This document shows positions 37,314-50,199 of a DNA stretch of 64,000 nucleotides, piece after piece. How positions within the stretch are numbered: the stretch's first letter is position 1; each line of letters starts with the position of its first letter. Location: assembly GCA_045535075.1 (NCBI GenBank), contig JAZSKX010000001.1, positions 32,001-96,000 of the forward strand, given 5' to 3'. The notes under the pieces are model-generated. The model was not told the DNA's origin, ran no database searches, and was given only the letters and a program-made list of their open reading frames with translations. Origin of the DNA: Candidatus Spyradenecus sp. (lineage in GTDB: Bacteria > Verrucomicrobiota > Verrucomicrobiia > Opitutales > UBA953). Both the position numbers and the translations under genes were made by a program.

Positions 37314-38108
37314 ATGAAAAAACTACTATTAATCGGAACCGTTCTATTAACCGCAAATTCTGCCGTAGCCAACGTCTACGACATTCTTACGTGGGGCTCT
37401 GGCTCAATCTCCGGCGGACAAAAATTGGAAGTTACAGGATTTACACAAGATCAAAATTGGAATGCGAAGAATACAAACGTAAATATTGCTTTTACGATTA
37501 ACGGAACTGCCGGGATAAATGACTCTTCTGCTTTACCTCTTAATAAATTTAATCCTGAAGCTTGGGTAAATTCAGAAGCATTGGAAGCGCTGAGTGCCTC
37601 TACAGGAAAAACAAAGAGTGATTTTAGCGGGCTGACGTCTGGAATTTATGTTGGCGGGAAACAAGGTTTGGCAACAGATGGAATTCGACTCACGTTTTCT
37701 GGTTTTGAGAAGGACAAGACATATAAGCTTTCTTTGCTTGTTAGTTCGCAAGATGGTCGATTAAACATTAGAACGCAAGGGGCTGGAGCTTCTACGAAGG
37801 GACTTGATGTTGTTTGTCAATACGGCGATATGACGGGGCAGAGTTGGGATTCTGTAAGTAATCAACTTTTGGGTGCTTCTGTGAAGTCAAATTCTCAAAC
37901 ACTTATTTCTTTTGATATTACGGCAACAAGTGGAAGTAATGCTCTTGTTTTGTTTTTTGACAATGTTACAACATCGTCCGGGGTTTCAGCTTCGGCGATT
38001 GATTTTATTGCGATTGGAGCGATTCCGGAGCCTTCAGCGTTTGGAATGTTAGCAGGTTTGGGCGCTCTTGCGTTTGTCGGGGCGCGCCGCCGCCGCAACC
38101 GCCGCTAA
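37314..38108 (+). CDS. PEP-CTERM sorting domain surface protein
   Basis: Signal peptide and tail IPEPSAFGMLAGLGALAFVGARRRRNRR; AT-rich body. Confidence 0.93.
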   Translation: MKKLLLIGTVLLTANSAVANVYDILTWGSGSISGGQKLEVTGFTQDQNWNAKNTNVNIAFTINGTAGINDSSALPLNKFNPEAWVNSEALEALSASTGKTKSDFSGLTSGIYVGGKQGLATDGIRLTFSGFEKDKTYKLSLLVSSQDGRLNIRTQGAGASTKGLDVVCQYGDMTGQSWDSVSNQLLGASVKSNSQTLISFDITATSGSNALVLFFDNVTTSSGVSASAIDFIAIGAIPEPSAFGMLAGLGALAFVGARRRRNRR

Positions 38109-38420
38109 TCGCGGCGGCAGATTGCGGAAATTTCCGACCGGATGATCGAATGTCTCGGTCGTATTGAATTTAACAAACTCCGATTAATTTAATTTTCTCG
38201 CTAACGCTCGACTTTGAGTAAGGCGCTATCCGAGCAGAAATTGATTTAATCGGAGTTTGTTTTTCTTCGGGAATTCTCGTTCCCGCGATTGGCTCTCCCG
38301 TAGAGTCAGCGAATTTCGCCAAGTAGGAATCTTTACGGCCGGATTTTGCGTCGTTCGTTTTTTTTGCGGCGGATAAAGAACACATATTTTTCTGTATATA
38401 CGATTCTCGTTTTTGTTTGG

Positions 38421-38448
38421 AAAGCTCCCGCATCTCAGCGGGAGCTTT
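38421..38448. terminator. Hairpin 3' of small peptide gene, copy 1
   Basis: AAAGCTCCCGC-ATCTCA-GCGGGAGCTTT. Confidence 0.65.
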
Positions 38449-38452
38449 TACC

Positions 38453-38515
38453 TTATTTTTTAATTGACTCCAAAAGTAGGAGAATCAAAATAAGAACCAC
38501 TATTATGGATTCCAT
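38453..38515 (-). CDS. 20-aa hydrophobic peptide MESIIVVLILILLLLESIKK, putative type I toxin (copy 1)
   Basis: GAAAGGA Shine-Dalgarno 8 nt upstream of the ATG. 17/20 identical to the copy at 48730, with mostly synonymous differences. Confidence 0.75.
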   Translation of the reverse strand: MESIIVVLILILLLLESIKK

Positions 38516-38532
38516 CACGGGATTCCTTTCTA

Positions 38533-38569
38533 AGCCGCGAGAGTTGCCGCTCTCGCGGTTCTTTGTTTT
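38533..38569 (+). terminator. Antisense-oriented terminator, putative 3' end of an antitoxin sRNA (copy 1)
   Basis: AGCCGCGAGAG-TTGCCG-CTCTCGCGGTT-CTTTGTTTT. The T tract is on the strand opposite the peptide. Confidence 0.6.
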
Positions 38570-38746
38570 AGCCCCGAGCCCGCTCTAACCAATCGCGCGG
38601 GCATTGCCGCGATCGGTTGTTGAAAAGTGTCCGAAAATCCCGGCAAAAAAGGCAAGCGTTTTTTCGGAAAACAAAAGAAAAACAACGCCCGCAAAGGCTT
38701 CAATCCTCTCGCATTGTTTCAGGTAAGGTGTTTTTATGAGGCACAT

Positions 38747-39436
38747 ATGGATAAAAAATCCGAGAATATCTGGTTGAGCCTTGCAGCGAACATTGCGATT
38801 CCGGCGTTGATTCTTTCAAAAGGCGGAGAATGGTTTCCGCAGATTTCGCCGGCATTGCGCCTGGTGATTGCGTTGGCGTTCCCGTGCGCGTATTTTTTTT
38901 ATGATTACATACGGCGCCGGGAAGCGAATTGGATTTCAATTTTAGGGTTTGCGGGAACGCTGTTGACCGGCGGCGTCGGCTTGATGCGTCTTTCGCCTTT
39001 TTGGGTTGCCGTAAAAGAAGCGCTGATTCCGGCGCTGATTGCGATTGCCTTGGTGTTTTCCCGAAAAATGGGAAACAAAATTTTGTTCAACGAAAAAATT
39101 TTTGACGTTCCCGCGATTCATTCGGCGTGTGCGTCTCGCGGCACGTCGGGAGATTTGGAGACGGCGTTGCGACGGTCGTCGTGGCTTTTGGTGGCGTCGT
39201 TTACGTTGAGTGCGGTGTTGAATTTTCTGCTTGCGCGTTGGATTGTTGTCAGCGATCCCGCAGAAAACCTTGAAGCTTTTAATGCGGAATTGGGAAAAAT
39301 GCTTTCGCTGTCGTGGCCGATTATTGTCGTTCCGTGCATGATTTTTATCACGGCGGCGCTTTGGGTGCTTTTGCGCGGGTTGAGTCGCGCGACCGGGCTT
39401 TCGGTCGAGCAGCTTCTACGGGAACGGAAATCGTAA
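38747..39436 (+). CDS. VC0807-family inner-membrane protein
   Basis: NIAIPALILSKG, LVIALAFP, NWISILG, LLTGGVGL, W.AVKEA.IP, SF.LSAVLNF.LA, FNAELGKM..LSWPII.VP. Confidence 0.75.
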   Translation: MDKKSENIWLSLAANIAIPALILSKGGEWFPQISPALRLVIALAFPCAYFFYDYIRRREANWISILGFAGTLLTGGVGLMRLSPFWVAVKEALIPALIAIALVFSRKMGNKILFNEKIFDVPAIHSACASRGTSGDLETALRRSSWLLVASFTLSAVLNFLLARWIVVSDPAENLEAFNAELGKMLSLSWPIIVVPCMIFITAALWVLLRGLSRATGLSVEQLLRERKS

Positions 39437-39488: not shown

Positions 39489-42200
39489 ATGAATTTTCTA
39501 AAAACTCTCGCGCTTGCTTTTACCTTGCTCGTTCCGTTTGCGGGAACGCTTTTTGCAGAAGATAAACATTTGAAGCTCGGAAAACCGGGCGTGCGCCAGA
39601 CTTTTGACTTTGACTGGCGTTTTGCGAAGTTCGGCGGCGACGAACATTGCTTGGAGCGCAACGATCCCGGCGCGGAAGCCGCCAAGCCCGGCTACTCCGA
39701 CTCGAAATGGCGCAAGCTCGACCTGCCGCACGATTGGGGCGTGGAAAGCCGATTCATGCCGAACAAACCGAACCAAACCGCCTCGCTCCCGTGGGACGCC
39801 GTCGGCTGGTATCGCAAGGAATTTTCCGTTCCCGCCGCCTCCAAGGGCAACCGCTTTTTCCTCGACTTTGACGGCGTGATGATGACGCCGCAGGTTTACG
39901 TCAACGGAGAACTCGCCGGCGAATGGAAATACGGCTACAACTCGTTCCGCGTCGATATTACGAAATTTTTAAAATACGGCGGGAAAAACGTTGTCGCCGT
40001 GCGCGCGGAAAACAAGCAGAACTCGACGCGCTGGTATCCGGGCGCGGGCATTTATCGCCACGTTTGGATTACGGAAGCGAATCCCGTGCACATCGCGCAT
40101 TGGGGCGTTTTCGTGACGGTGCCCGAAATCAAGGGAATCAAGAAAATCAACGAAAAGAAGCCGCCGAAGGAAATTAAGGCTTCGAGCGCGAAAATTAACG
40201 TCGCGACGACGGTCGCCAACACGGACGCCGCTCCCGTGAGCGTTGAAGTCGTCCAAGCCGTTTATCCGCTTGTCGGGAAAAAAGACAAACCTCTGGCGAC
40301 AAAAACCGTCGCGGCGACGGACGTTCCCGCCGGCAAGGAAAAAGTCATCGACGCGGAATTTTCGCTCAATTCTCCGAAACTCTGGGACGTGCTTTCGCCC
40401 TCGCTTTACGTTTTGCGCACGACGGTAAAAATCGTCGGAAGCGACGGGAACGCGAAAACGACCGACCGCAAAGACACGATCTTCGGCGTGCGCAAAGCCG
40501 AATGGAAGCCGGACGGTTTTTACCTGAACAACCGCCGTGTCCAAATCAAAGGCGTTTGCCAGCACCACGACCTGGGACCGCTCGGCGGCGCCGTTCATAA
40601 GCGAGCGATCGAGCGGCAGATTGAGATTTTAAAAAGCTTCGGCGTGAATTCAATTCGCACCTCGCACAATCCGCCCGCGCCGGAACTTCTCGAACTTTGC
40701 GACCGCATGGGCATTCTCGTCGACAACGAGCTCTTCGATTGCTGGAAACACCTTAAGGAAGGCAAGGCAAACGGCTACAATCTTTTCTGGAACGATTGGC
40801 GGGAACGCGACGTACGCAATTTCGTCATGCGCGACCGCAATCACGCCTGCGTCATCGCGTGGTCTGCCGGGAACGAAATCGCCGAGCAGGGCGCGAAAGA
40901 CGGGATCGCGATCGCAAAAGACCTTGTTTCGCTTTTCAAAAAATACGATACGACACGCCCCGTTACCGTCGGCTGCAACGATTTAAGCGCTTCGTGGAAC
41001 GGCTTCGGCAAGGAGTTTGACGTTTACGGCTTTAATTACAAACCGAACAATTACAAAGATTTCGCAAGCAAAAATCCGAAAACGCCCTTCGTCGCCTCCG
41101 AAACTTCGTCTTGCGTGAGCACGCGCGGATTTTACTCGTTCCCGGAAAACGACAAGGATTATGCGCCGTTTTGGAGACGCAATTTCTGCGACAATCTCGC
41201 GATTTGCCAAGTCAGCGACTACGGGCTTTACGCTCCGGGCTGGGCGTATGCGCCGGACGTGGAATTCGGTGCGCTTGAAGACGAGCCGCGTTGCGCCGGC
41301 GAATACGTTTGGACGGGCTTCGATTATCTCGGCGAGCCCACGCCGTGGAATCTCGGGCGCAAGCCGGAAAACGACTTCCGCGGCGCGTCCGAAGCCGAAA
41401 TCAAAAAACTCAAAGAGGAAATGGCAAAAATCCTCGCGCAAGGCACGCCTTCCCGCAGTTCGTATTTCGGAATCGTGGACCTCTGCGGCTTTTGGAAAGA
41501 CCGCACTTACCTTTATCAATCGCACTGGATGCCGGATGTGCCGATGGCGCACATTCTCCCGCATTGGAACTGGAAAGGTTCCCGCGAAGGAAAAATTACA
41601 CCCGTTTTTGTTTACACGAGCGGCGATTCCGCCGAGCTTTTCCTGAACGGAAAATCCCTCGGCAAGCGAAAGAAAAAAACAGGCGCCGGGCTCACCGGAA
41701 AAGACATGAACGGAGACATGCGGGAACGCTTCCGCCTGACGTGGACGGACGTAAAATACGAGCCGGGAACGCTCAAAGTCGTCGCCTACAAAAACGGAAA
41801 AAAATGGGCGGAAGACATTGTGGAAACCACCGATGAACCCGCAAAAATGAATGTTTCCGTTGACCGCCCGACAATTCTCGGCGACGGGCGCGACCTCGCC
41901 TACGTTACAATCGTCATCGAAGACAAAAAAGGACGCAAGGTGCCGACCGCCGACAACCGCCTGAAATTTTCCGTCAGCGGGAACGCCGAAATCGTCGGCG
42001 TGTGCAACGGCGACCCGACCGATCACGATTCGATGAAAGGCGACACGATCAAGGCGTTTTCCGGCATGGCGCAGGTGATTTTGCGTTCCAAGCGCGATTC
42101 CGCCGGCAAGGCAACGCTGAAAATTTCCGGCGCCAAACTGCCCGCTGCCACCGTCGACATCAAAATCGAAAAACCGACCGCGCGCCAGCTGCGCAACTAA
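39489..42200 (+). CDS. Glycoside hydrolase family 2 (beta-galactosidase-like)
   Basis: Signal peptide, LDLPHDW, RWYPGAGIYR, HHDLGPLG, IRTSHNPP, WSAGNE, WTGFDYLGEPTP. Confidence 0.95.
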   Translation: MNFLKTLALAFTLLVPFAGTLFAEDKHLKLGKPGVRQTFDFDWRFAKFGGDEHCLERNDPGAEAAKPGYSDSKWRKLDLPHDWGVESRFMPNKPNQTASLPWDAVGWYRKEFSVPAASKGNRFFLDFDGVMMTPQVYVNGELAGEWKYGYNSFRVDITKFLKYGGKNVVAVRAENKQNSTRWYPGAGIYRHVWITEANPVHIAHWGVFVTVPEIKGIKKINEKKPPKEIKASSAKINVATTVANTDAAPVSVEVVQAVYPLVGKKDKPLATKTVAATDVPAGKEKVIDAEFSLNSPKLWDVLSPSLYVLRTTVKIVGSDGNAKTTDRKDTIFGVRKAEWKPDGFYLNNRRVQIKGVCQHHDLGPLGGAVHKRAIERQIEILKSFGVNSIRTSHNPPAPELLELCDRMGILVDNELFDCWKHLKEGKANGYNLFWNDWRERDVRNFVMRDRNHACVIAWSAGNEIAEQGAKDGIAIAKDLVSLFKKYDTTRPVTVGCNDLSASWNGFGKEFDVYGFNYKPNNYKDFASKNPKTPFVASETSSCVSTRGFYSFPENDKDYAPFWRRNFCDNLAICQVSDYGLYAPGWAYAPDVEFGALEDEPRCAGEYVWTGFDYLGEPTPWNLGRKPENDFRGASEAEIKKLKEEMAKILAQGTPSRSSYFGIVDLCGFWKDRTYLYQSHWMPDVPMAHILPHWNWKGSREGKITPVFVYTSGDSAELFLNGKSLGKRKKKTGAGLTGKDMNGDMRERFRLTWTDVKYEPGTLKVVAYKNGKKWAEDIVETTDEPAKMNVSVDRPTILGDGRDLAYVTIVIEDKKGRKVPTADNRLKFSVSGNAEIVGVCNGDPTDHDSMKGDTIKAFSGMAQVILRSKRDSAGKATLKISGAKLPAATVDIKIEKPTARQLRN

Positions 42201-46982: not shown

Positions 46983-48494
46983 ATGGATATCGTAAACTAC
47001 ATTAAAGGACTTGAGGATCCGGCGACGGGAACGTCTCCGACCTTCGACGCATTGGTCATTGTGCTGATGCTCGTCGTTATCGCGATTGTCGCGATTCAGG
47101 CGTGGCGCAAAGGCGTGCGCAACGTTGCAAACCTCGCCGACGCGAGCACCGCGCCGGGGAAATGGGCATGGATTGCCGTCGGCTTGCTCTGGATCGTCGT
47201 GATGCTCAATTATTTCGACCGCCAGTTGCTTTCGGTCGTGCGCGCGCCGATTGTTGAAGATATTCCGATGACGGATGCGCAGTTCGGCTTAATCACTTCG
47301 GCGTTTCTCGTTATTTACGCGGTGCTTAGCCCCGTCGGCGGTTTCCTCGCAGACCGCTATTCCCGCCGCTTGGTCATTCTTTGCTCGCTCGTCGTTTGGT
47401 CCACGGTAACGTGGTGGACGGGGCATGCGGAAGATTACACGACGCTCTTCATTGCGCGTGCCGCGATGGGCGTTTCCGAAGCATTTTACATTCCTGCCGC
47501 ACTCGCGCTTATTACCGACTATCACCGCGGGAGCACGCGCTCGCTCGCAACCGGGATTCACATGAGCGGGATTTACGCCGGGATGGCGCTCGCAGGCTAC
47601 GGCGCAACAATGTCCGACGCTATCGGCTGGCGTATGACTTTTGCCGTCTTCGGTCTCATCGGCGTGCTTTACGGATTTGTTCTTATCGTTTTCCTGCGCG
47701 ATCCGAGCAAGGCTCCCGCAGACAACGCGCGTGAGCAACTTCGTGACGGCGTTCCCGCCGCTACGGAAGAAAAAGCCGTTCCCGTCGCCGATTTTGAAAA
47801 AATGTCCGGTGCGCAGGTTTTCAAAAGCCTGCTCAGCTCCCGCCCGATGTGGATTTTGCTGACCGTCGTCGCCTTCGCAGGCGCAGGCAACTGGTTCCTG
47901 CTCACGTGGTATCCGACGCTTTTGACCGACACCTTTAAGGTAATCCAAGACGTTTCCGTTCCGCTTGCCGACGCGAAGGGCATGGGCGACGTTATCAGCC
48001 TCACGACGGGTGAAGCCGGACCGGCGGCAACGCTTTGGAGTTCTATCGCAAAATACATTGCCGTCATCGTCGCCGCGATTATCGCCGACCGTTGGGTGCA
48101 GAAAAATCTCAAGGCGCGCGCGCTCGTTCCCGGGATTTCGTTCGTGCTCGCGGGACCGTGCGTCATTCTCGCCGTCGTGCTCGCGGGAATGTTCGGCGGT
48201 GTCGCTTGGCTTTTCTATACGATGCTTGCGCTCGTTGCGACACAGGGAATTGCGCAGGGCTCGCTCGACGCGACGCTCATGCCCGTCATGCGCTCGCATA
48301 TCGACGAACGCTACTCCGCGACCGGCTACGGTTTGCTGAATCTGACCTCGGCGGGCGTCGGCGCGCTGATTTCCTTCTTCGGCGGCTGGTTCAAAGACCA
48401 GGGCGTGCCGCTGACCACGACGCTTGCCGTCGCCGGCGGCTTGATGTTCATCTGCGGTATTCTCTTCTTCGCGCTCCCGAAACCGCAGAAGTAA
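46983..48494 (+). CDS. MFS transporter, possibly for sialic acid or another sugar acid
   Basis: LNYFDRQ, GGFLADRYSRR, MGVSEAFYIPA; adjacent to the NanM-like gene. Confidence 0.88.
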   Translation: MDIVNYIKGLEDPATGTSPTFDALVIVLMLVVIAIVAIQAWRKGVRNVANLADASTAPGKWAWIAVGLLWIVVMLNYFDRQLLSVVRAPIVEDIPMTDAQFGLITSAFLVIYAVLSPVGGFLADRYSRRLVILCSLVVWSTVTWWTGHAEDYTTLFIARAAMGVSEAFYIPAALALITDYHRGSTRSLATGIHMSGIYAGMALAGYGATMSDAIGWRMTFAVFGLIGVLYGFVLIVFLRDPSKAPADNAREQLRDGVPAATEEKAVPVADFEKMSGAQVFKSLLSSRPMWILLTVVAFAGAGNWFLLTWYPTLLTDTFKVIQDVSVPLADAKGMGDVISLTTGEAGPAATLWSSIAKYIAVIVAAIIADRWVQKNLKARALVPGISFVLAGPCVILAVVLAGMFGGVAWLFYTMLALVATQGIAQGSLDATLMPVMRSHIDERYSATGYGLLNLTSAGVGALISFFGGWFKDQGVPLTTTLAVAGGLMFICGILFFALPKPQK

Positions 48495-48522
48495 GGAGAA
48501 CGAGATTAAAGAAACTCGGAAG

Positions 48523-48561
48523 AAGCGTTCCCGTGATGCATTTCGCGGGAACGCTTTTTTT
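48523..48561 (+). terminator. Terminator built from an inverted CGGGAAC pair
   Basis: AAGCGTTCCCGTGA...TCGCGGGAACGCTTTTTTT. Confidence 0.88.
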
Positions 48562-48671
48562 AGGGTGAGGAATAAAACTTTTCTTTAATAAAAATAGATA
48601 TTAATGTGGTAGCCTTTATTGCTCGCGATTACGTCCGCGCGGGCAAGTGAAACAGACACACGGACCAAAAC

Positions 48672-48706
48672 AAAAAAGAAACCGTGAGAGTGGCGACTCT
48701 CACGGT
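48672..48706 (-). terminator. Antisense-oriented terminator, putative 3' end of an antitoxin sRNA (copy 2)
   Basis: AAAAAAGAA-ACCGTGAGAG-TGGCGA-CTCTCACGGT, with a compensatory pair change relative to copy 1. Confidence 0.6.
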
Positions 48707-48729
48707 CTTATTTGGAAAGGAGCTTCCAA

Positions 48730-48792
48730 ATGGAATCATTAATCCTGGTTCTCATTTTGATTCTACTTATTTTGGAGTCAATAAAGAAATGA
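48730..48792 (+). CDS. 20-aa hydrophobic peptide MESLILVLILILLILESIKK, putative type I toxin (copy 2)
   Basis: GAAAGGAG Shine-Dalgarno; paralog of 38453-38515. Confidence 0.75.
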   Translation: MESLILVLILILLILESIKK

Positions 48793-48797
48793 GGTAA

Positions 48798-48832
48798 AAA
48801 GCCCTCGCCGTTTTTCTTCGGCGGGGGCTTTC
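48798..48832. terminator. Hairpin 3' of small peptide gene, copy 2
   Basis: AAAGCCCTCGCCG-TTTTTCTT-CGGCGGGGGCTTT. Confidence 0.65.
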
Positions 48833-48990
48833 CCAAAACGGATTTGTATGTTTGTGTTTGCTTTCGTGATTTTAAAATGTGTGGCGTTGCGATTCCCGTG
48901 AAATAAGCCCGTTGCGTCGGCGTGAAATTATTTGCATATTTGGAGATACGTTCTGAGGCTTTAAAACTCTGTTTTCGGCGAATTTAAACC

Positions 48991-50199
48991 ATGAACTTTG
49001 TATCCAAAATTTACTGTCGTGCTTTCCAGACGGCGTTTCGCTTGGCTCTGCCCGTTTTGCCGTATCGGGAGCCGCAAATCGTCAATTCCTGTGCCGGGCT
49101 CAAAAGCGTTTTCGAAAAAGAATACGTGAAATCGGTGCTCGTCGTTACGGACAAGGGTATTGTGGCAAACGGTTTGCTGGCGCCGCTCGAAAAAGTTCTG
49201 TCGGAAAGCGGCGTAAAATTTACCGTTTACGCGGGAACGCAACCGAACCCGACGGTTGAAAATGTGGAAACGGCGCTTGAGTTGTATCGCGGGAACGCCT
49301 GCGATTGCCTGATCGCCGTCGGCGGCGGGTCTTCCATGGACTGCGCGAAAGCCGTCGGCGCGCGCGTCGCTTATCCGAAGAAAACTATCGGGCAAATGAA
49401 AGGCGTTTTGCGTATCCTGCGCCGTTTGCCGACGCTGATCGTAGTGCCGACAACGGCGGGAACGGGGAGCGAAGTTACGCTCGCTGCGATTATTACCGAT
49501 AGCGAAAAACAGCACAAATACGCGTTGATGAGCTTTCCGCTCATTCCGCATTACGCCGTGTTGGACGCTTCGCTGACGTATTCTTTGCCGCCGCATCTGA
49601 CTGCGACAACCGGCATGGACGCACTCACGCACGCAGTCGAAGCCTACATCGGGCGTTCCACTACAAAGGAAACCCGCCGCCTCGCGCTCGATGCCGTGAA
49701 ACTGGTTTTTAACAACATTGAGCTTGCCTGCGGGAACGGCAAAAATCATGCCGCAAGGGAAAATATGCTTCACGCCGCCTACAGAGCGGGCGTGGCTTTT
49801 TCAAAATCCTACGTCGGCTACATTCACGCGGTCGCGCATTCTCTGGGCGGGCAATACGGCACACCTCACGGACTCGCGAACGCCGTTATTATGCCTTACG
49901 TTTTGGAAGCGTACGGAAAATCCGTATATAAAAAACTACATACACTCGGCGTCGTCGCCGGCGTGTGCGACGGGAACGACACCGACAAGATCGGTGCCGA
50001 AAAATTTATCGCGGCAATCAAAGCATTAAACAAAAAAATCGGGATCCCCGCCAAGCTCGCGGGAATTCGCCGGGAAGACATTCCCGTCATGGCGAAACAC
50101 GCCGCGAAGGAGGCGAACCCGCTTTATCCCGTTCCGAAACTGATGACGCAAAACGAACTTGCCGAATTTTACGCGCAGTGCGCAGATTGGAGTAATTAA
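48991..50199 (+). CDS. Iron-containing alcohol dehydrogenase
   Basis: VGGGSSMDCAK, PTTAGTGSE, GMDALTHAVEAY, HAVAH, HGLANA. Confidence 0.95.
   Translation: MNFVSKIYCRAFQTAFRLALPVLPYREPQIVNSCAGLKSVFEKEYVKSVLVVTDKGIVANGLLAPLEKVLSESGVKFTVYAGTQPNPTVENVETALELYRGNACDCLIAVGGGSSMDCAKAVGARVAYPKKTIGQMKGVLRILRRLPTLIVVPTTAGTGSEVTLAAIITDSEKQHKYALMSFPLIPHYAVLDASLTYSLPPHLTATTGMDALTHAVEAYIGRSTTKETRRLALDAVKLVFNNIELACGNGKNHAARENMLHAAYRAGVAFSKSYVGYIHAVAHSLGGQYGTPHGLANAVIMPYVLEAYGKSVYKKLHTLGVVAGVCDGNDTDKIGAEKFIAAIKALNKKIGIPAKLAGIRREDIPVMAKHAAKEANPLYPVPKLMTQNELAEFYAQCADWSN

Follow-up and report, generated by a model that had tools for sequence, protein, structure and literature searches.

What does a block of about 200 nucleotides (nt) do that occurs twice in one stretch of the genome of Candidatus Spyradenecus sp. 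(Verrucomicrobiota, Opitutales), and that combines a 20-codon open reading frame (ORF) with three RNA hairpins? The stretch, hereafter the window, comprises 64,000 nt (GenBank assembly GCA_045535075.1, contig JAZSKX010000001.1, positions 32,001 to 96,000). Each block, or module, is made up, from 5′ to 3′, of a first hairpin (hairpin 1), an A-rich linker, a second hairpin (hairpin 2), a Shine-Dalgarno (SD) sequence, the ORF and a GC-rich 3′ hairpin. An original prediction, made from the first copy, proposed a type I toxin-antitoxin (TA) module, i.e., a small membrane peptide controlled by an antisense RNA that covers its ribosome-binding site. Our comparative analysis suggests, on balance, that the modules represent a new, genus-restricted type I TA-like family in gut Opitutales.

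All elements listed by the original prediction for copy 1, namely, the hairpins, the GAAAGGA SD sequence, the ORF and the GC-rich hairpin, were present on the minus strand, and the paralogous module that it had placed at 48620-48840 (copy 2) exists, on the plus strand. The two paralogues align over approximately 200 nt, from hairpin 1 to slightly beyond the 3′ hairpin. As read from the sequence, the ORFs encode MESIIVVLILILLLLESIKK followed by TAA in copy 1 (38453-38515, minus strand) and MESLILVLILILLILESIKK followed by TGA in copy 2 (48730-48792, plus strand). The SD sequence of copy 1, GAAAGGA, is located 8 nt upstream of the ATG (38524-38530, minus strand), and that of copy 2 is GGAAAGGAG (48714-48722, plus strand). 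A codon-by-codon comparison revealed seven synonymous differences (codons 3, 5, 8, 12, 13, 18 and 19), three conservative replacements (I4L, V6L and L14I) and the TAA/TGA exchange, in exact agreement with the tally first reported.

Homologues were sought in samples of 61, 137 and 151 GTDB species genomes, which overlap in part, and a covariance model was built from 14 homologues. While BLASTN of the assembly that contains the window (18 contigs, 1.95 Mb) yielded no copies beyond the two, the model retrieved a third, more divergent copy outside the window (locus L042; G000, contig 12, 56262-56434, minus strand), which encodes MINTNQLILILILIFLILVSR. In total, it identified 20 modules in 10 of the 19 genomes of a single gut Opitutales genus (Verrucomicrobiota): three copies in the window's genome, and one to four copies each in 9 of the 18 other species. 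It matched none of the 118 genomes from four other genera of the family, of which 137 genomes were scanned, and none of its matches in approximately 260 genomes from other parts of the family and order was credible. The sole match outside the genus in the 151 order genomes (G054, 47 nt, E = 0.0068) was spurious, having neither a small hydrophobic ORF nor the hairpins. A weak match within the genus, L043 (G014, contig 33, 15355-15531; E = 2e-4), was considered doubtful and excluded from all counts; it has an A-run before a hairpin and a 19-codon ORF, MELITEIPMVLIRFYIVNT, and could have arisen by chance or be a highly divergent relative. No module was found in plasmid and phage collections.

The ORF bears the marks of a translated gene. 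An intact frame of 20 to 21 codons is present in 18 of the 20 modules, all of which retain an SD-like AAGG or GGAG motif; the remaining 2 modules have decayed. All three types of stop codons are used and interchange among modules. The intact ORFs define three peptide subfamilies, ending in LILILLLLESIKK, in LILILI(F)LILVSR (the subfamily of L042), or having the divergent forms of genome G014, MTSVILVLMLLLLLIESIKK and MITLIVVLMLLLLLILSIRK. These subfamilies differ in sequence and share a common peptide design: 20 to 21 residues, 65 to 80% of which are I, L, V, F or M, a polar N terminus, a hydrophobic core of Ile, Leu and Val, and a basic C terminus. Residues beyond the I/L/V run are also conserved (E2, E16, S17 and KK). 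We calculated substitution rates by the Nei-Gojobori method for the ESIKK-type ORF, of which there are 11 distinct nucleotide sequences (55 pairs). The mean rate of nonsynonymous substitution (dN) was 0.080 and that of synonymous substitution (dS) was 0.769, a ratio of 0.10, which supports the selection on the peptide that had been proposed from the two copies alone; variable sites at codon positions 1, 2 and 3 numbered 9, 3 and 14 of 20, respectively. We are thus highly confident that the 20-residue peptide is made.

A genome scan based on ORF features only (ATG, 15 to 40 codons, at least 65% ILVFM, SD sequence required) returned four matches, compared with five in the reversed-genome control, so that the features of the ORF by themselves are unremarkable. 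Three of the four matches lay outside long ORFs, and they were exactly the three homologous modules. What lifts the feature far above chance expectation is its conservation, dN/dS ratio and covariation over the 20 modules.

The 5′ region of the module is a conserved RNA structure. Hairpin 1 of copy 1 (38588-38617, minus strand) has a 10-bp stem and a 10-nt loop and would lie in the 5′ untranslated region (UTR) of the mRNA, and that of copy 2 is at 48619-48646 (plus strand). Hairpin 2 is GC-rich, with a 9-bp stem in copy 1 (38535-38558, minus strand; 48682-48705, plus strand, in copy 2). A plain MAFFT alignment analyzed with RNAalifold yielded the same two 5′ helices as the covariance model. 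Among 19 distinct rows of the alignment, 14 of the 16 modelled pairs changed on both sides, with compensatory changes at 9 of 10 pairs in hairpin 1 and at 5 of 6 modelled pairs in hairpin 2. Paired cells amounted to 95.2%, in an alignment fitted to the model structure and hence biased in its favor, versus 74.4% in shuffled alignments, none of which reached the observed value in 500 trials, and 35 to 44% with slid partners. A further RNAalifold helix, which would join the linker (GGGCU) to the 3′ side of the terminator, showed little covariation and competes with the terminator; it was not adopted.

The two strands of a hairpin can be distinguished because the complement of a G·U pair is an A·C mismatch. 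On the sense strand, 24 G·U cells occur in hairpin 1, and its sense fold is the more stable one in 11 of 17 distinct modules. The same holds for the 3′ hairpin in 14 of 17 modules. For hairpin 2, in contrast, stability favors the antisense fold (16 of 17 modules), and among 15 distinct sequences we counted 18 G·U pairs in the antisense fold versus 1 in the sense fold; in several lineages, the sense strand carries an internal C·A mismatch where the antisense strand forms a G·U pair. The Wilcoxon P values for these differences overstate the evidence, since the sequences are related, and the direction of the effect was consistent across subfamilies. In both window copies, the terminator scan likewise flagged hairpin 2 as terminator-like on the antisense strand, with the T-tract on that strand as originally described. 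Thus, by scan, strand stability and G·U pairs, the hairpin just upstream of the SD sequence behaves as a terminator of the antisense strand, and its sense form is the mirror image of that terminator.

The loop of hairpin 2 in copy 2 (48691-48696, TGGCGA) is exactly inverted relative to the TCGCCA of the orthologous loci L029 (G016) and L036 (G007), the stem being identical. The flanks of these loci are 99% (L029) and approximately 95% (L036) identical to the window. The difference looks like a hairpin-mediated inversion of the loop.

If hairpin 2 terminates an antisense RNA, where would this RNA begin? A consensus scan of both regions (38150-38800 and 48450-49050) detected one promoter-like site in each, TTGACT-16-CAAAAT in both cases, opposite the ORF. 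In copy 1, it spans codons 9 to 17 (38464-38491, plus strand); in copy 2, it also lies inside the ORF (48754-48781, minus strand). A promoter-like sequence is found at this position in all 18 intact modules and in the three subfamilies, with TTGACT, TTGACA or TTGAAA separated by 16 nt from CAAAAT, CAGAAT, CAACAT or CAGCAT (the hexamers of L027 and L034 were read by eye); L042 has its own TTGAAA-16-CAGAAT and hairpin 2 terminator. The hexamers are kept even though the encoded peptide shifts there from L-E-S-I to L-V-S-R or L-L-S-I. In the ESIKK group, only 5 of 19 third-codon positions are invariant (codons 2, 9, 10, 16 and 17), and the synonymous sites within the two hexamers are invariant in 4 of 4 cases (hypergeometric P = 0.0013). 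Codon preference does not favor the fixed codons: in the 25 long ORFs of the window, TCA represents 5% of Ser, GAG 20% of Glu and TTG 17% of Leu codons, and the remaining Ser and Ile codons of the small ORF vary freely.

As a whole, both window ORFs make heavy use of codons that hardly occur in the long genes of the window (ATA, 2% of Ile; CTA, 1%, and TTA, 4% of Leu; TCA, 5% of Ser), and they are AT-rich relative to the 52.5% GC background. Promoter constraint, low expression and foreign origin are possible causes.

By placing the transcription start site about 7 nt after the −10 hexamer, we predict antisense RNAs of approximately 73 nt for copy 1 (38498-38570, plus strand), ending with the hairpin at 38533-38560 and a U-tract, and of approximately 79 nt for copy 2 (48669-48747, minus strand), whose terminator at 48708-48679 is followed by CTTTTTTGTT. 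Judged by eye, 16 of the 18 intact modules have a strong U-rich tract 3′ of hairpin 2 on the antisense strand, e.g., TTCTTTGTTTT or TTTCTTTTTTGTTTT. The predicted RNA would have a 5′ half with weak structure, which is complementary to codons 1 to 6, the AUG and the SD sequence, followed by the terminator hairpin and the U-tail. On these sequence features, we have fairly high confidence that a cis-antisense RNA, the candidate antitoxin, exists and would end at hairpin 2.

The predicted sense transcript is delimited by similar signals. In four modules (L025, L040, L041 and L044), a near-consensus promoter, TTGACA-16-TATGAT, TTGA(T/C)A-16-TATACT or TTGACT-17-CATTAT, ends exactly 10 nt before hairpin 1, so that transcription of the mRNA is expected to start at the base of that hairpin. 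At the same position in copy 1, some 8 to 10 nt upstream of hairpin 1, we read by eye a weak candidate promoter below the thresholds of the scan, TTGCCT-18-GACACT, with 7 of 12 matches to the consensus (38626-38655, minus strand). The −10 position of copy 2 reads TGTGGT, versus TATAAT in its orthologue L036. Judging from these sequences, the antisense promoter would outrank the sense promoter in strength in the window copies. The probable end of the mRNA is the GC-rich 3′ hairpin (copy 1, 38421-38448, minus strand, tail UUCC; copy 2, 48800-48829, plus strand, tail UUCCC, with a U·G wobble on the sense strand), giving a predicted sense mRNA of approximately 205 to 215 nt. The scan lists the 3′ hairpin of copy 1 as terminator-like on the plus strand, and the hairpin may act bidirectionally because there is a T-tract on the opposite strand. 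In three modules of the second subfamily, L022, L023 and L024 (genomes G007 and G011), the minimum-energy folds pair the 3′ tail after the terminator with the start-codon region, by sequences that differ between L022/L024 and L023; this pairing may be a 5′-3′ lock such as that of some type I toxin mRNAs.

Taken together, these data are consistent with each module being a self-contained pair of genes for two RNAs, of the type I TA kind. The sense RNA would start a few bases upstream of hairpin 1, carry a structured 5′ UTR, the SD sequence and the ORF of 20 to 21 codons, and end at the GC-rich hairpin, and its peptide would insert into the cytoplasmic membrane. A sigma-70-type promoter within codons 9 to 17 would drive the RNA of about 73 to 79 nt from the opposite strand, perfectly complementary to codons 1 to 6, the start codon, the SD sequence and hairpin 2, and transcription would stop at the complement of hairpin 2 with its U-tract. 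Pairing of the two RNAs would block ribosome binding and/or create a substrate for RNase III, so that peptide synthesis would be limited to times when the antisense RNA is scarce. The presence of the antitoxin promoter within the toxin ORF would force the choice of the rare codon pairs GAG-TCA and ATT-TTG. With a promoter in its codons and a hairpin shared by both RNAs, one 200-nt block would therefore have to satisfy the demands of coding, promoter function and structure on both strands at once. We infer from the comparison that both RNAs are made with these ends, that the antisense RNA represses the mRNA and that the peptide harms the cell; we consider the chances about even that the pair acts as toxin and antitoxin.

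Several observations weigh against this model. The hydrophobic core of the peptide, 12 to 15 residues, is short for a membrane span. Shuffled versions of the two regions contain 0.8 promoter-like sites on average, such that one site per region is expected by chance and the case for the antisense promoter rests on its conservation among sequences that are related and not independent. Part of that conservation might have another cause, a UUGA...UCAA helix of the mRNA (4 to 5 bp in RNAalifold, with no covariation), although this helix fails to explain the invariance of codon 9, or that of codon 16 in the copies in which the inner pairs are lost. The most divergent subfamily, that of G014, has weak −10 hexamers (CAACAT and CAGCAT), and its two modules have a weak antisense U-tract. 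On the sense side, the promoter of neither window copy reaches the scan thresholds, and in most modules the 3′ hairpin lacks a proper U-tract, its tail being of the UUUCC type. Finally, the partition-function folds of 14 predicted full-length mRNAs showed no consistent masking of the SD sequence or AUG, with a mean unpaired probability of the SD region of 0.22 to 0.65; an inert primary transcript is therefore not claimed here.

The serious rival is that the ORF is an ordinary gene for a harmless small membrane protein, e.g., a modulator of a membrane complex, tuned or not by an antisense RNA and devoid of TA logic. The solid findings, a translated, conserved membrane-type peptide and a structured 5′ UTR, would be accounted for as well by such a gene. 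The short hydrophobic core also speaks for it, and in the cyanobacterial screen described in PMC12390103, expression had no effect on growth for four of six predicted type I toxins. The genomic distribution of the modules, however, is difficult to reconcile with this explanation. Comparison of flanks placed them at about 11 different, unrelated genomic sites whose neighbors differ, with no conserved partner gene. Their occurrence is patchy, as half of the sister species lack them, and the copy number varies from one to four. Two modules form a tandem pair in G014 (L039 and L045; contig 174, 19565-19715 and 20103-20255, about 540 bp apart), the second of which has decayed by a 1-nt frameshift in the ORF; the other decayed copy, L038 (G016), has lost both start and stop codons, while its orthologue at that site, L027, is intact. 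Pairs in opposite orientations, 3 to 10 kb apart, are found in G011 and in the window. Upstream of the gene for an Fe-containing alcohol dehydrogenase (Fe-ADH) that follows copy 2, the module is present in two of the seven closest loci examined and absent from five, unlike what would be expected of a housekeeping accessory subunit; in the loci without it, homology to the window resumes only 3′ of the module. This patchy, multicopy, genus-restricted distribution over variable sites resembles that of a selfish element. Moreover, the promoter and terminator signals of the antisense strand would still demand an explanation. We regard a harmless membrane protein as less likely than a TA pair, but as a real possibility.

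Could the ORF instead encode the leader peptide of an attenuator that senses the supply of Ile, Leu or Val, the 3′ hairpin being the attenuator terminator of a downstream operon? The ORF is 65 to 80% Ile/Leu/Val/Met with a hairpin directly 3′ of it, the Rfam model Phe_leader gives a weak, chance-level match (20.9 bits versus a gathering threshold of 55; E = 0.44), and the Fe-ADH gene (48991-50199, plus strand) is co-oriented with copy 2 and starts 196 nt after it. Gene orientation contradicts this proposal, as at least 4 of the 12 loci examined (L025, L028, which is copy 1, L040 and L042) are followed by a convergent gene. In addition, the downstream genes vary from site to site and are not amino acid biosynthesis genes, the folds contain no alternative antiterminator pairing, and the peptide is conserved outside the I/L/V run at E2, E16, S17 and KK. 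An attenuator is thus most improbable. Equally implausible is a noncoding small RNA with a fortuitous 20-codon frame, or an antisense strand that alone is functional: the strong conservation of RNA structure and the chance rate of such ORFs in the reversed genome would fit, but the dN/dS ratio of 0.10 with variation dominated by third positions, the retention of frame, start, SD sequence and stop in 18 of 20 modules with three interchanging stop codons, and the common peptide design of subfamilies of different sequence argue for a coding function.

Regarding the surroundings of the window copies, copy 1 lies in antisense orientation between two plus-strand genes, at 37314-38108 and 38747-39436. 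The former encodes a PEP-CTERM-anchored protein with a weak match to CBM_4_9, and the latter encodes a protein of 229 amino acids that matches no Pfam family and is followed by a GH2 glycosidase gene (39489-42200). Fe-ADH proteins 97 to 99% identical to that encoded downstream of copy 2 were found in metagenome-assembled genomes (MAGs) of uncultured ruminant-hindgut Opitutales, near Ca. Spyradenecus and Ca. Spyradosoma. Beyond a few Opitutales MAGs, the best matches come overwhelmingly from gut MAGs of Clostridia/Eubacteriales, with 64 to 80% amino acid identity, which suggests gene exchange between gut Firmicutes and the Opitutales lineage.

Does the type I TA-like family that we favor correspond to a described one? 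Rfam searches at both loci returned nothing above gathering thresholds and nothing related at E values up to 10, the sub-threshold matches to rteR, Phe_leader and GibS being at chance level. The peptide had no match in NCBIfam or PADLOC, and Pfam and NCBIfam gave no type I toxin family; a Pfam match to PsbT, with an E value of about 0.5, was at chance level. The suggestion of an undescribed family is thus partly supported, by the lack of a matching described family, the multiple copies, lineage restriction and variable sites of the modules, and the conserved antisense promoter in the ORF. As T1TAdb defines type I systems, the mRNA has 150 to 400 nt, the toxic protein 20 to 60 amino acids and the antisense RNA 60 to 200 nt, and the sizes predicted here (approximately 205 to 215 nt, 20 to 21 amino acids and 73 to 79 nt) fit this definition. 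The peptide has the class feature of a small, hydrophobic, membrane-directed protein, and the modules show the lineage-specific, multicopy chromosomal distribution described as typical of the class in PMC5367252. In Table 1 of that article, Ibs is entered with "repeats in sequence data" as the way in which it was found, and as restricted to one phylum, regulated in cis and causing membrane damage.

Ibs/Sib of Enterobacteriaceae, to which the original prediction likened the module, is indeed the closest system in design, with a hydrophobic peptide of about 19 to 20 residues, a cis-antisense RNA (a predicted one in the module), intergenic repeats and a narrow lineage. The likeness does not extend to sequence: the peptide is unrelated to the Ibs family and the RNA to the Sib family, and the modules belong to a different phylum, Verrucomicrobiota. 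In addition, Sib RNAs overlap the whole ibs ORF, whereas the predicted antisense RNA of the module has its promoter inside the ORF and covers the 5′ third of the ORF, the SD sequence and part of the 5′ UTR. In this respect, the module resembles Helicobacter pylori AapA1/IsoA1 and the hok/sok system of plasmid R1, in which the antisense RNA targets the 5′ UTR and translation initiation region of an mRNA that encodes a small membrane toxin and has a highly structured leader. The AapA1 and hok toxins have about 30 to 50 amino acids, and their primary transcripts are kept inert by long-range pairing between the 5′ and 3′ ends and need 3′ processing; the module differs in its shorter peptide, in the absence of consistent SD sequestration in the folds and in the lack of homology. 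Regulation of AapA1, as described in PMC6733600, works through folding of the toxin mRNA. A further resemblance, by analogy only, is to par (Fst/RNA II), since hairpin 2 would be present in both RNAs of the module. In par, a system of Enterococcus pAD1, the terminator stem-loop is complementary in both RNAs, with loops that provide the first contact, and the RNAs converge and share the 3′ terminator. In contrast, the shared hairpin of the module would be the antisense terminator within the 5′ UTR of the mRNA. The systems are not homologous, and Pfam gave no match to such toxins.

Before a cyanobacterial candidate was reported, type I systems were, according to PMC12390103, known only in Proteobacteria, Firmicutes and Tenericutes, a narrow range that may be an artefact of detection as discussed there and in PMC5367252. 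That candidate, MsoT1/MsoA1 of Microcystis aeruginosa, is like the module a de novo candidate from outside these phyla; it differs in phylum and in its unrelated locus, and growth inhibition data in Escherichia coli are presented for it in PMC12390103, whereas the evidence for the module is comparative. Our search of the literature on type I TA systems combined with Verrucomicrobia or PVC taxa retrieved no description of such a system. The chances appear evenly balanced that the modules are the first type I TA family of Verrucomicrobiota (PVC superphylum), with no homology to described toxins or antitoxin RNAs, an antitoxin promoter located in toxin codons and a terminator that doubles as a 5′ UTR hairpin.

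Two tests applied here, that of strand-specific G·U pairs and that of synonymous sites, could serve again to find such modules without RNA data. The module itself would provide a compact test case of overlapping constraints, with a promoter within a 20-codon gene and one hairpin serving both strands. Should the peptide be non-toxic, the module, with its structured leader, would still represent a new, unannotated and conserved gene for a small membrane protein; if well supported, the candidate would extend the type I class to the PVC group.

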